Origin: Gammaproteobacteria bacterium
Lineage (GTDB): Bacteria; Pseudomonadota; Gammaproteobacteria; GRL18
Direction: 5' to 3'
NCBI GenBank assembly: GCA_027071355.1
Contig: JALSUJ010000410.1
Span: 984 to 24,983 of the forward strand
DNA length: 24,000 nucleotides
This document shows positions 12,001-15,000 of the stretch, in pieces. A program made the position numbers. Within the stretch, counting starts at the first letter, position 1; the number at the start of each line of letters is the position of its first letter.

Positions 12001-15000
12001 TATACGCAGCTTCTTCCAGTTCTCCATTCGTACATATGATACCTCTATAACACATAGACTAGATAAGTTATTATGCTATAATAACCCACATTTCGTACAG
12101 TGTACGATATCTAGCCCATGCAGGAAACATACGAACAAATCATTCAGCAAATCAAAGAGGTATTAATGTCACCAGGCGGTGAACTGGAGACGGCCTGTAT
12201 TCGCTGGATACAGGAAAGGGTTAGAAATGAGAAGGCGGCCCACGTTGAGGTTATTGACGTGGGTTACGATTGCTCAAGCTTCGGGAAAACAACGAACGAT
12301 AAAATAGATCCAACAGCATTTCAGACCATCCAGAACTTTCTGGACTATCCAACCGGACAATCTATTCCAACATTCCTTTCTGGTTCAGGTATGATGACAG
12401 AGACCTACGAGGAACCCTTTGTAGAGTTTATCCGCGACTCTATAGAGAACTGGCTGACTCGGCAGGGATACGGCCCAGTCATTCGAGATCAGAATGGTAC
12501 TGTCGATGATGATTTTGCAGACATGCTGTGTGATTCCGATGCTAGTGAGTATGCGTTTTCAAACCATATCGCAAATAAGCCTTTCCCCAGAATACAGGGG
12601 GTGTCATGCTGACCGGTATCCGTCTCAAAGCCCATCCTACGCTGGAACAAAAAAAGGTGTTATCGCAATGGATGGGCTGTGCAAAGACTATCTGGAACGC
12701 TAAATGTGAGGACGAGCGTTACCATACCCGCTTTGCTCGCAAGTATTACCCTGTTGGCACCTATGCGCCTGTCGATCAGAGTTTTGCCCAATACAAACAC
12801 CCTGAACTCACGCCCTGGTTATCGGATTGCCCAAGCCAGATATTGCGAAACAGCGCGGGGAACTGGTACAAAACCTATCGAAAATTCATCAAAGGGGATT
12901 GCGGCAAGCCCAGGCGAAAACGCTTTGATGATATTGGCAGCATTCACTTAACCCGTGAGCTCTTTGCGTTTATTGTCGGCGAAGATGGCGTTGAGCGTTT
13001 ATTCGTAGGGTCAAAAACCAACAACATTGGCTTTCTGTCGATCAAGAATCACGGTAAGTACAACAAGCCGAAATCCATCTACATCAGACGGCAGAATGGT
13101 CACTATACCGTGTCGTTTTGTTATGACAACGGTGAAGACGCCGCTTTGATATCAGATAACAAGGAGCATCTCGATTATCTGCGTGGTGCGAGCGAAAAAT
13201 ACCTGTCAGCGCATGTGCTCGGTGTTGATCGAGGGGTTGCCAGACCGGTGCAGGCAGGTGATAAGAATTATGACTTCAGCAAACAGCAAAAAGCCAGGCA
13301 AAAGAAAAAGGCGGCGTGTATCAAAAGCCAGCAGAGGCGGCTTGCAAGACAGGTAAAAGGCTCAAGGCGACGTAGCAGAACCCGACAGACGATCAGCAAG
13401 GCCCACAATAAGATAGCCAATATCCGCAATGACTTTTGTCATCAAACCAGTCGAAAGCTGATTGATCTATCAGGTACAAAGGTTATCGTTTTTGAGGATT
13501 TACGAACCCGGTCGATGACACGCAAACCCAAACCCAGGCAAAACAGTGAAACAGGCCGATTTGAGAAAAACCATGCCAGCCAGAAAGCCGGCTTAAACAA
13601 AGCGATCCTCAACATTGGCTGGCACAAACTGGAAGTCTACACACAATACAAAGCCCATCGAGCAGGCAAAGCTTTCTTTAAAGTGCCTGCGCATCACACC
13701 AGCCAGGAATGTGCAGCTTGCGGCCACATTCACCCCGAGAACCGACAAACCCAGGAAGCGTTTGTTTGCCGGTCTTGTGGCAACGAAGATAATGCTGACA
13801 GAAATGCCAGCCTGGTGATCAAAAAGCGAGCAATCGAGTTAATCAAATACCCTGGAACGGGGTTGTCCAGGCGCGGTGTGCTGCGCCGGGATACAGGGCG
13901 AGGAGCCAGGCATCAGACATCCAGAGCGAAAGCTTTGCATGCAGCGGGCAATGAGTCGTCAAAAAAGAAGAGAAACACAGCTAAAGCTGTGTAGTACCTG
14001 AAGCTCGCTGGCTTTAGTCGCGAGTAGTTCACACTACGCCACAGGGAGTTAGTACAGCTTAAAAAGCGTGCTGAATACTTGTGGTGACTCCTGCCCCTGG
14101 CAGGAAAAGCGGGTCATTCGACCCATTTTTTAAACCCCCGCACGGGTAAGACTTCCCGTTGGGGGATGCCTGTCTGTGTGGGATTTTTGCCCGTTAGGGC
14201 AGGAGATTATCATGAGGAATGATATTGTTGTGTTACCTTATTTTTATACGGATCGTACTGACATCAGTGCAATGATGGACACTAAGGCGTTTCTGCCGTA
14301 TGTAACTTATCGGATAAGCAGAAACTGCTCGAAGAGAAGGTTAAGAAGTACGTAAAAGCCATAAAAGGCTTCATGGATCGGGTGGGTTTTTACCCACCCA
14401 CTTATCAGAGGGCCATGAAGCACTACAGAAAGTAGCGCTTCAAGACTCTGTATTAAGTCCTCACCCGGCAATTTTGCCGGGTGAGGAAGCAATTTAGCTT
14501 GACAACCTGCCTTAAACGTCCAATAATTACCCTGTCTGACCAAGACCGTGGTAGCTCGCCACGCAAAACAAAAAGTATCTTCCTGGTCACAGGGTAACCG
14601 GTGACCAACACAATCCGATACCACCCGGTAGGCATTGCCTCTACCGTCGATGACGTATCTTTTCTATTTCCCAGTATTACGACGACAACACCAGTTTATT
14701 TTGGCCGATCGCTTGCGGGCGCTCGACCAAAATGAATTTATTGTCTCATCTGAGGCGACTTGTCCTATCAAGGTTAAAAAAGGGGTCTTTTGACGGTTTT
14801 TCCTAAGAAAACTATTTCATAGAGAGTTAAGTACAGCTTAAAAAGCGTGCTTGGATATTTATGAAAATTTAAACGCCTATTGGCAACAAGAGCACATAAA
14901 TTCTGTTTGTGTGCATTTAAACCCTATAGGGGGATACGTCCCCTTATGGGGATTGATCTCCTTATTATTTTTGCCCACCAGGGCAGGAGATCAAGATGAA

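Follow-up and report, generated by a model that had tools for sequence, protein, structure and literature searches.

A single IS605-family transposon, inserted 3′ of the hexamer TTGAAC, occupies positions 11535–14032 (2,498 bp) of the 24,000-nt gammaproteobacterial DNA stretch that was analysed (the window). It carries three genes: tnpA on the minus strand and, on the plus strand, tnpB preceded by a reading frame for a 164-residue acidic protein (ORF164). ORF164 is very probably a real, IS-borne accessory gene of the TnpB operon that belongs to a new protein family. The explanation favored overall, in which this gene assignment is blended with a mechanism whereby the protein modulates TnpB, is given a probability of roughly 0.45. 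The features of the element and its flanks are as follows.

11458–11534, plus strand: left half of the split backbone repeat, ending in TTGAAC (11529–11534)
11535–11570, plus strand: left end (LE), with a subterminal hairpin CCCG-N12-CGGG at 11551–11570
11571–12035, minus strand: tnpA, Y1 HUH transposase, 154 aa (PF01797, E = 2.3e-44; NF033573, 148 bits, cut-off 55)
12036–12117, no strand: divergent control region, with −35 TAGACT (12055–12060), TG (12074–12075), −10 TATAAT (12077–12082) and the dyad TCGTACAgTGTACGA (12093–12107)
12118–12612, plus strand: ORF164, acidic protein of an unannotated family, from ATG 12118 to the stop TGA (12610–12612)
12606–13994, plus strand: tnpB, RNA-guided nuclease, 462 aa (NF040570, guided_TnpB, 223.6 bits, cut-off 100; PF07282; PF01385)
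13995–14032, plus strand: right end (RE), with a hairpin CTCGC-N11-GCGAG at 14004–14024 and the terminal GTAGTTCAC ending at 14032
14033–14072, plus strand: right half of the split backbone repeat, of which 14051–14072 is identical to 14830–14851
14737–14851, plus strand: intact paralogous backbone repeat, standing in for the empty site

The ends of the element are fixed because the empty-site paralogue and at least 10 independent copies agree. When the two flanks are joined, they reproduce the intact paralogous repeat without a single duplicated base, and thus insertion produced no target duplication; a 68-nt segment of the left half (11458–11525) is 84% identical to 14737–14804. On the left, homology among the window element and the L001, L026 and Endozoicomonas copies begins straight after TTGAAC. 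This hexamer directly precedes the left end in nine copies (the window, L001, L026 and six from Endozoicomonas) whose other flanking sequence is unrelated, and TTGAAC at 11529–11534 is the conserved target and predicted TAM. The left-end motif TTTAGRGGCGRGTCAAGC is present in L001, L002, L010, L014 and L026. On the right, all copies of the element share the terminal GTAGTTCAC and finish in GAGTAGTTCAC, which occurs once in the window and beyond which the copies diverge. The right-end stem carries a compensatory change in L001 (CTCAG/CTGAG versus CTCGC/GCGAG). Both ends thus have subterminal hairpins; the element has no terminal inverted repeats and a fixed short target 5′ of the insertion. An omega-RNA at the right end is predicted solely from conservation of that end: by analogy with ISDra2 and IS608, 13995–14032 may form the 3′ part of the scaffold, and the guide would match the first ~16 nt from 14033. 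A Rfam scan of the whole window at the gathering threshold matched no family, and a megablast search of the IS against plasmids returned no match. Assignment of tnpA and tnpB to separate elements is ruled out by the two ends, by the paralogue that represents the empty site and by the copies in which the three genes are conserved together. The initial annotation had placed ORF164 inside the IS from the split backbone repeat, and the mapped ends bear this out.

The window TnpA shares 79% identity with the L001 copy and 75–80% with those of L026 and L023. In TnpB, the RuvC D/E/D triad (GVDRG, VFEDL and NADRNA in the alignment) and the CxxC...CxxC zinc ribbon are intact. The starts of tnpA and tnpB lie 570 bp apart, in agreement with the gap of about 570 bp holding a 164-aa reading frame that had been described. 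The overlap reported between the ORF stop and the tnpB start is likewise present: ATGCTGA (12606–12612) contains both the tnpB ATG (12606) and the ORF164 stop, and a Shine-Dalgarno-like AGGGGG for tnpB sits within the 3′ end of ORF164. Upstream, the extended −10 element proposed from the sequence (TGcTATAAT, 12074–12082) belongs to the top sigma-70-like match in 11400–14200 (TAGACT, a 16-nt spacer and TGcTATAAT; 10/12, TG present), and the −35, spacer length and −10 are kept in two diverged copies, L001 and L023. The palindrome that had been placed at 12094–12106 exists, with a slightly larger extent (TCGTACA-g-TGTACGA, 12093–12107), and other lineages carry differing dyads at the equivalent position. 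ORF164 and tnpB form one operon behind this conserved promoter.

The substitution pattern of ORF164 indicates a genuine gene under purifying selection. Relative to L001, whose ORF is 75% identical and whose three genes are laid out alike, dN/dS is 0.147 and the differences by codon position are 29/16/62; over five pairs the values are 0.147, 0.181, 0.210, 0.116 and 0.140, and those of tnpB are 0.136 and 0.194. The closest homologues (75% and 57% identity) are exactly 164 aa long and align without gaps, and homologue length stays within 156–171 aa down to 36% identity. At the 5′ end, ATG 12118 has no Shine-Dalgarno sequence and ATG 12166 (M17) has AAAGAGG 6 nt upstream; the gene caller started the ORF at M17 (P0001, 148 aa), and residues 1–16, upstream of M17, are conserved among homologues. 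That ORF164 is a chance reading frame or a non-coding spacer, as its missing Shine-Dalgarno sequence and absent database annotation might suggest, is refuted by dN/dS values of 0.12–0.21 in all five pairs, and the constant length, the breadth of the family and the confidently predicted fold described below leave this explanation with a negligible probability. The encoded protein is strongly acidic, as had been judged by eye (pI 4.30, 27 D+E versus 12 K+R, net charge about −15).

A profile search recovered 139 representative clusters at E ≤ 1e-3, 38 of them at E ≤ 1e-10. The family core motif is D-x-GYD-x-S ... PTG-x-T-x-x-T-x-x-SG-x-G. In 81 aligned members, which otherwise share 20–30% identity, D51 and S53 are conserved at 99%, T85 at 98%, S88 at 95%, G89 at 96% and G91 at 98%, and the near-invariant glycines 80, 89 and 91 are located at predicted β-turns. 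D51, S53, T85, S88 and these glycines resemble a catalytic or ligand-binding site more than a charge mimic. Acidity is uniform across the family (median pI 4.7). An AF2 model of ORF164 (pLDDT 95.9) predicts a compact α2-β4-α(5) fold; an earlier run from 3 sequences (pLDDT 57) was discarded. Foldseek comparison of the model with PDB and BFVD gave a best E of about 1 with TM below 0.25, and hence no neighbor. The initial annotation recognized no domain, and the searches give the same answer: ORF164 has no Pfam, NCBIfam, PHROG, PADLOC or PDB match (NCBIfam was run on ORF164 alone; Pfam, PHROG and PADLOC were run on the 81 members), and PDB profile searches were empty. Weak matches to Barstar (8e-4), AbiEi (2e-3) and others, each in one of the 81 members, are unrelated and were treated as noise. 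Neither a tblastn search of ORF164 against phages nor a viral-contig scan gave a match. A word-index search with the 81-sequence profile returned 6 matches, and a locus search with a narrower family alignment returned two metagenome loci only. Taken with the model, these results place ORF164 in an unannotated acidic family with a confidently predicted fold that has no detectable structural or sequence relative. Literature searches, with ISfinder outside their scope, found no description of the family, and those on TnpB inhibitors or on an IS607 upstream ORF in Acinetobacter gave no relevant result.

Homologues linked to tnpB occur in several layouts, based on usable context for only ~25 lineages picked by similarity to the query. 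The divergent arrangement of the window, with tnpA facing ORF-tnpB, is shared by L001 and L002 (75% ORF identity), by L023 and L026 (42%; TnpA 75–80% and TnpB 59% identical) and by L033 and L034 (36%; ORF-tnpB junction TAATG). In L025, a Y1 tnpA (37% identical), ORF160 (52%) and a gene for a divergent TnpB-like protein follow one another on one strand, overlapping or abutting. A third layout is of the IS607 type (L028–L031 and L044), in which an ORF of 210–213 codons precedes a serine tnpA and tnpB; its hosts include plasmids of Vibrio breoganii, Photobacterium damselae and Acinetobacter (L031; L029), and in L029 tnpB is split and tnpA is not annotated. Two of the IS607-type plasmids share homology from the ORF to tnpB only, and therefore the ORF lies within the element. 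The profile of this subfamily retrieves ORF164 of the window at E = 7.5e-8. Every TnpB associated with family members retains the D/E/D triad in the alignment. The family has therefore repeatedly joined the tnpB operon in unrelated TnpB-bearing transposons, in two layouts of IS605 and one of IS607. The tree of the ORF conflicts with that of TnpB, with ORFs 52% identical where the TnpBs are unalignable and 42% identical where the TnpBs are 59% identical; because the trees disagree, the ORF must have moved between TnpB lineages and yet is still found in front of tnpB. The closest TnpB relatives, those of Endozoicomonas (56–58%) and an Anoxychlamydiales copy (53%) whose tnpA-tnpB spacer is 74 bp, lack the ORF. 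All three refuting conditions named in the initial annotation (no homologues linked to tnpB, a non-coding substitution pattern, tnpA and tnpB on separate elements) turned out in favor of the finding.

Family members also persist outside complete transposons. The L004 relic consists of the ORF and 20 tnpB codons in register, with the same ATGCTGA overlap, and these codons rule out the reading of this solo copy as an ancestral non-IS locus. The L027 relic holds the ORF and 8 codons of an IS607 tnpA, with a dN/dS of 0.116 versus an IS-borne copy. Intact standalone members without an adjacent TnpB are found at L018, L022, L024, L032 and L035, and as P0193, which follows a PIF1-type helicase as a fixed part of the backbone of a widespread marine element (indexed in 105 blocks). 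Neighboring genes encode Fic (L022, L024), AbiEii with AAA_14/DUF4143 (L018), HipA (L027–L029, L035) and a PolyA_pol nucleotidyltransferase (L035). Because intact standalone members exist and relics remain under selection, the protein works without a TnpB in cis.

Our best guess is that ORF164 serves TnpB-bearing transposons as an accessory factor that binds protein. It would be co-produced with TnpB from translationally coupled or abutting genes and would act in trans as a protein-binding factor in the TnpB lifestyle. Its most likely target would be TnpB or its RNP, whose DNA cleavage it may restrain or tune in the manner of an immunity protein or antitoxin; in a less likely variant, it would modulate how the cell handles TnpB-made breaks. 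As most relatives lack the ORF, the protein would be dispensable for transposition and for the activity of TnpB itself. Acidity is common among nuclease inhibitors and immunity proteins. A role as a specific modulator of TnpB is nevertheless put forward tentatively, and several observations speak against a TnpB partner: in IS607-type elements the ORF abuts tnpA rather than tnpB; a specific inhibitor is expected to co-evolve with TnpB, yet the trees are incongruent; standalone members have no adjacent TnpB; and the closest TnpB relatives do without the ORF. More doubtful still is the wider proposal that the TnpB (OMEGA) nucleases of transposons have in this family their first dedicated protein partner, namely a self-encoded off-switch or cofactor with a new fold, which would be exchanged among IS605 and IS607 lineages, remain active in trans after transposon decay and serve as a natural anti-TnpB.

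The main rival to a TnpB-directed role is that ORF164 is autonomous mobile-element cargo, a plasmid-, ICE- or phage-type gene (for example, for anti-defence or a counter-toxin) that travels as a passenger of TnpB ISs and benefits the carrier element instead of acting on TnpB. The location of standalone members in accessory regions beside Fic, AbiEii, HipA and the PolyA_pol nucleotidyltransferase, the fixation of P0193, the retention of the ORF in relics after loss of tnpA and tnpB, the disagreement between the trees, an acidity like that of ArdA, Ocr and many anti-CRISPRs, and the mobile-element-like character of the window itself all fit such a gene. However, IS200/IS605/IS607 elements are minimal and passengers are rare in them; chance capture is hard to reconcile with at least three unrelated elements in which the ORF always lies on the tnpB strand and is tightly coupled to the neighboring IS gene; and the family has no match in phage or viral collections or PADLOC, or to known anti-defence folds. 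Cargo is regarded as a possible but less likely explanation. Less likely again is an enzyme or small-ligand binder in which the invariant Asp/Ser/Thr/Ser cluster on the β-sheet forms an active or binding site for a nucleotide, nucleic-acid end or modified base, assisting the transposon through, for example, omega-RNA or DNA-end processing or signalling. Conservation of at least 95% at six positions across so divergent a family, the compact and confidently predicted fold and the nucleotide-transferring toxins among the neighbors point in this direction, but no enzyme family or fold is similar, the conserved glycines at β-turns may be purely structural, and no nucleotide-binding motif is recognizable in this small, highly acidic protein.

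The initial annotation had treated a three-gene IS605 architecture of this type as apparently undescribed. That holds for this family, of which no description was found, but not for the architecture, as Arc-containing IS605 elements (tnpA/arc/tnpB) are known (Moon, Zedaveinyte, Wiegand & Sternberg, bioRxiv 10.64898/2026.09.24.754181). In both systems the ends enclose a third gene that does not encode a transposase, often by the divergent intergenic promoter, and in both, homologues of the accessory gene are found outside transposons. In contrast, Arc is a small DNA-binding ribbon-helix-helix repressor, whereas ORF164 is a 164-aa protein of pI 4.3 with no DNA-binding domain, and its family also occurs in IS607 elements, before the serine tnpA. 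An Arc-like repressor that acts on the divergent IS promoter through the dyad at 12093–12107 would be in keeping with the reported repression of the intergenic promoter by Arc and with the lineage-specific dyads just downstream of the −10. It is made very improbable by the charge of the protein, by a predicted fold unrelated to ribbon-helix-helix, by the absence of a ribbon-helix-helix or helix-turn-helix domain (no Pfam RHH match; a sole Arc-like PHROG match at E = 0.31 over 19 residues) and by the absence of a divergent promoter from the IS607-type and L025 layouts. A second comparison is offered by RHH/MazE-TnpB pairs, which have been suggested to be toxin-antitoxin modules (Altae-Tran et al. 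2023, PNAS, PMC10691335). Here too a small gene directly upstream of tnpB is co-transcribed with it, and both cases suggest a nuclease-blocking protein; however, those pairs involve immobilised archaeal TnpBs whose catalytic site is rearranged, and a known antitoxin fold, whereas the ORF164 system has mobile TnpBs with canonical D/E/D triads and a partner from a new family.

The window element otherwise resembles canonical IS605, ISDra2, IS608 and IS607 elements in its combination of TnpA (Y1 or serine) and TnpB, its subterminal hairpins, its insertion 3′ of a fixed short target which also serves as the TAM and the (predicted) overlap of the right end with the guide-RNA scaffold, and differs in that those elements have two genes only. 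In Endozoicomonas, tnpB-only derivatives with the same ends lack the ORF. Acidic proteins that inhibit nucleases or mimic DNA (ArdA, Ocr, barstar, many anti-CRISPRs and SUKH/DUF4303 immunity proteins) are likewise small, strongly negative and mobile-element-borne, with the inhibitor gene before the nuclease gene, but have no detected sequence or structural similarity to ORF164. For ArdA and Ocr, no Pfam match was found in the 81 members and no Foldseek match in PDB or BFVD, which leaves negative charge as the only feature in common. Charge is the sole basis of the DNA-mimic idea for ORF164, and the D51/S53/T85/S88 cluster and the lack of a structural neighbor decide neither way. A SUKH/DUF4303 identity found no support for ORF164: it has no match at E up to 10, and PDB profile and Foldseek searches were empty. 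A sub-threshold SUKH_5 match (E = 0.02–0.03, 15 bits, cut-off 27) covers only residues 98–193 of the Acinetobacter 213-aa form and, like the single UniRef name of DUF4303, concerns a C-terminal extension that ORF164 lacks.

TnpB is the ancestor of Cas12, is among the most abundant prokaryotic genes and serves as a compact genome editor. Its control by transposons is just starting to be understood, with Arc reported in 2026, and the present analysis adds a second accessory family, unrelated to Arc, that recurs before tnpB in IS605 and IS607 elements. If ORF164 is cargo after all, it would offer a rare example of a new-fold passenger gene disseminated by IS200/IS605/IS607 elements. As a candidate partner or regulator of TnpB nucleases, the ORF164 family would make it testable whether the guided nuclease of a transposon is regulated or inhibited by a protein that the same transposon encodes, whether such proteins could serve as off-switches for TnpB editors and why they survive as orphans.

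The element at 11535-14032 has, judged from its sequence, the standard anatomy of an IS605-type transposon, and its ends, transposase and nuclease are ordinary for this family. The coordinates of the initial annotation, including an overlap of the ORF164 stop with the tnpB start, were all borne out by the ORF list and the sequence.

Features of the element
11551-11570, left-end hairpin
11571-12035, minus strand, tnpA (Y1_Tnp, E = 2.3e-44; NF033573, 148 bits)
12118-12612, between tnpA and tnpB, ORF164 (164 codons; stop TGA and tnpB ATG overlapping in ATGCTGA, 12606-12612)
12606-13994, plus strand, tnpB (guided_TnpB, 223.6 bits, cut-off 100; PF07282 and PF01385)
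14004-14024, right-end hairpin (compensatory stem change in homologous locus L001)

The ends were set by comparing the window with loci L001/L002, L023 and L026 and with seven tnpB-only copies from an Endozoicomonas MAG. Since every copy compared starts directly 3' of TTGAAC and ends in ...GAGTAGTTCAC, with flanks that are otherwise unrelated, the element is assigned a length of 2,498 bp and no target duplication. Both ends enclose ORF164, in agreement with its proposed location inside the IS. TTGAAC is predicted, on the model of ISDra2 and IS608, to serve TnpA as its target and TnpB as its target motif (TAM). The Endozoicomonas copies, at least seven in number (OZ246962.1; L007-L011, L014, L015), share the left end, right end and TTGAAC target with the window's IS but contain neither tnpA nor the ORF. 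They resemble non-autonomous derivatives, open to mobilisation in trans by a related TnpA. At L023 (2403-2612), a three-gene copy has landed in the tnpA of another IS200-like element, the product of which is 34% identical to the TnpA of the window.

The insertion point is one copy of a ~115-nt backbone repeat, the two halves of which are the 68-nt repeat at 11458-11525 and the 22-nt repeat at 14051-14072; an intact paralogue lies at 14737-14851. Further intergenic modules of this backbone are found at 14183-14215, 14470-14502 and 14967-14999, where a recurring 33-nt motif (ATTTTTGCCC..GGGCAGGAGAT..ATGA) comprises a hairpin, a Shine-Dalgarno sequence and an ATG; in the first and third copies, the end of the motif is the start codon of a small ORF. 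The backbone (531-10387 and 16501-23868) looks like a plasmid or ICE and encodes a DHH phosphoesterase, a PD-(D/E)XK nuclease, DUF3150, a Toprim primase, a CobT-like VWA protein with an AAA_5 (MoxR/CbbQ-like) ATPase, and a BsuBI/PstI-type restriction enzyme with an Eco57I-like methylase. A second, unrelated tnpB (18140-19342, minus strand, 400 aa; OrfB_IS605 and Cas12f1-like_TNB) is ~24% identical to the first and has no adjoining tnpA or ORF164-like gene.

On the evidence of its substitution pattern, ORF164 is a genuine gene. The copy in L001/L002/L003, which has the same tnpA / ORF-tnpB layout, differs from it at 29, 16 and 62 sites in codon positions 1, 2 and 3, respectively. In this pair, dN/dS is 0.147 for the ORF, 0.136 for tnpB and 0.065 for tnpA, and four other within-family pairs give 0.116-0.210. 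A chance ORF, the alternative raised in the initial annotation, is excluded by this coding pattern and by nearest homologues of exactly 164 aa that align without gaps. Which start codon is used is uncertain: no Shine-Dalgarno sequence precedes ATG 12118, whereas one (AAAGAGG) lies 6 nt before ATG 12166, the codon of M17, a residue invariant in close homologues. A gene caller chose M17, giving a 148-aa protein (P0001); residues 1-16 are nonetheless conserved across the family and modelled as a confident helix. Upstream, the best sigma-70-like site in 11400-14200 combines TAGACT and TATAAT at a 16-nt spacing with a TG ahead of the latter (12055-12082), and includes the extended -10 promoter noted earlier. 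Two diverged copies of the element retain TATAAT, the 16-nt spacing and, almost unchanged, the -35 (aAGACT in L001). The palindrome just 3' of this -10 is likewise present, and differs in each IS lineage.

Dyads downstream of the -10
12093-12107, window, TCGTACAgTGTACGA
~6805-6825, L001, TTGATATCAA
~455-480, L023, TATAAC-N12-GTTATA

These dyads may act as an operator or form a 5'-UTR hairpin, varying together with the lineage.

The protein is, as surmised from its sequence, strongly acidic (pI 4.30; 27 acidic and 12 basic residues) and without a recognisable domain, giving no match in Pfam, NCBIfam or PHROGs. A three-sequence profile searched against 1.84 billion representatives recovered 139 clusters at E<=1e-3 (38 at E<=1e-10; 8 at E<=1e-30), most of 160-210 aa or 260-300 aa. 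The family is uniformly acidic (median pI 4.7). No consistent match was obtained for 81 members in Pfam, PADLOC and PHROGs, or for three profiles in a PDB sequence search. AlphaFold2 on the 81-sequence alignment (pLDDT 95.9, pTM 0.88) predicts a pair of N-terminal helices, an antiparallel sheet of four strands and a C-terminal part made of helices. Foldseek searches of the PDB and BFVD returned no neighbour for this fold (best E ~1, TM <0.25). The conserved core reads D47-x-G-Y-D51-x-S53 ... F74-L75 ... T79-G80 ... T85 ... S88-G89-x-G91 ... E95, with D51, S53, T85, S88, G89 and G91 at least 95% conserved. The family is unannotated and has no detectable structural relative. A separate lead to nuclease immunity came from one UniRef label, DUF4303, and SUKH_5 matches (E ~0.02); a preprint (10.64898/2026.07.13.738213) lists DUF4303 as one of the domains of immunity proteins predicted to be cognate to Rhs nuclease and deaminase toxins. 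Both signals derive only from the C-terminal extension of the Acinetobacter form, and the lead is unsupported for ORF164.

Homologues are linked to tnpB elsewhere, in a small and biased sample of genomic contexts, in three element types, each with the ORF on the tnpB strand and tightly coupled to the next IS gene. Type A has the layout of the window's IS605 element, one TnpB clade and a common right end.

Type A copies, compared with the window
L001/L002, ORF 75% identical
L023/L026, ORF 42%, TnpA 75-80%, TnpB 59% identical; junction TAG-ATG
L033/L034, ORF 36%, TnpB 50% identical; junction TAATG

Type B (L025, on a 93-kb metagenome contig) has, in this order, a Y1 tnpA (37% identical), ORF160 (52% identical to ORF164) and a divergent TnpB-like protein of 482 aa, all co-directional and overlapping or abutting. 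By its sequence, this last protein (5476-6924; NF040570, E=3.5e-15, 56 bits, below cut-off) belongs to a very divergent TnpB lineage that keeps D/E/D without the zinc-ribbon cysteines. In type C, of IS607 type, a 210-213-aa family form precedes a serine-recombinase tnpA and tnpB, in L044 and on plasmids of Vibrio breoganii, Photobacterium damselae and Acinetobacter pseudolwoffii. The Vibrio and Photobacterium plasmids share DNA homology only from 86 bp before the ORF to just past tnpB, which places the ORF inside the mobile unit. On an A. baumannii plasmid (L029), a split TnpB-related gene lies ~600 bp 3' of the ORF, with no annotated tnpA. The IS607-type subfamily comprises 42 clusters at 90% identity, one with 251 members across Acinetobacter chromosomes, and its profile finds the window's ORF at E=7.5e-8.

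The catalytic triad is kept in all associated TnpBs. BLASTP gives no alignment between the TnpBs of types A, B and C, whereas their ORFs are 30-52% identical; the gene has therefore passed from one TnpB-bearing element to another, across two transposase classes. Within type A, the ORF (42%) diverges faster than TnpB (59%) and TnpA (80%). Because the closest TnpB relatives lack it (the Endozoicomonas copies, 56-58% identical, and an Anoxychlamydiales relative, 53%, with a tnpA-tnpB spacing of only 74 bp), the ORF is an addition rather than a core part.

Family members also occur outside intact elements. One relic (L004-L006) retains the ORF, the same ATGCTGA overlap and the first 20 tnpB codons, directly followed by a tRNA-Pro gene; at >=90% identity, its ORF shares a cluster with a protein whose name comes from a Candidatus Thiodiazotropha MAG. 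Another, on a Shewanella plasmid (L027), retains the ORF and 8 codons of an IS607 tnpA, with a dN/dS of 0.116 relative to an IS-borne copy; the plasmid also carries, ~5.6 kb downstream of the relic ORF (12185-12197), the motif GCGAGTAGTTCAC found at right ends in the window's IS clade. Other copies have no stub of IS genes and are termed standalone.

Standalone copies
L018, adjoins AAA_14/DUF4143 and AbiEii
L022, 24 bp downstream of a RhuM-Fic gene
L024, convergent with Fic
L032
L035, long form, adjoins a PolyA_pol-type nucleotidyltransferase and HipA
P0193, fixed gene of a widespread marine element, following a PIF1-type helicase

Nucleotide- or phosphate-transferring toxins often lie within a few kb of family members (HipA at L027, L028, L029 and L035; Fic at L001, L022 and L024; AbiEii at L018; the PolyA_pol nucleotidyltransferase at L035). 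This proximity could hint at function, or could simply reflect the toxin-antitoxin genes that mobile elements ordinarily carry.

The initial annotation was not aware of any published three-gene IS605 design of this type. As a layout, three genes have a precedent in elements with Arc, a ribbon-helix-helix repressor that binds the intergenic promoter (bioRxiv 10.64898/2026.09.24.754181); for the ORF164 family, no describing paper was found in open-access text. RHH/MazE-TnpB pairs have been proposed as toxin-antitoxin modules (PMC10691335). ORF164 is unrelated in sequence and predicted fold to both Arc and these RHH/MazE partners, and an Arc-like repressor is unlikely given its charge and fold. 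We tentatively favour, at a probability of roughly 0.35, a protein that is co-expressed with TnpB and modulates the nuclease or its RNP by protein binding. Expression together with TnpB would start from the promoter at 12055-12082, and the protein would act like an immunity or antitoxin-like partner or, in a variant, influence how breaks made by TnpB are handled. The chief alternative, autonomous cargo such as an anti-defence factor or counter-toxin disseminated by these ISs, is only slightly less probable. A role as an enzyme or ligand binder, to which the invariant Asp/Ser/Thr/Ser cluster points, is improbable.

Selection still acts on orphan and standalone copies, which counts against a role tied to TnpB and requires that the protein can work in trans or has a target outside the IS. 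The element nevertheless carries a genuine third gene whose family recurs in IS605 and IS607 TnpB operons. No other argument speaks as strongly as this repeated linkage for a protein that serves the TnpB-transposon lifestyle, as opposed to a random passenger.
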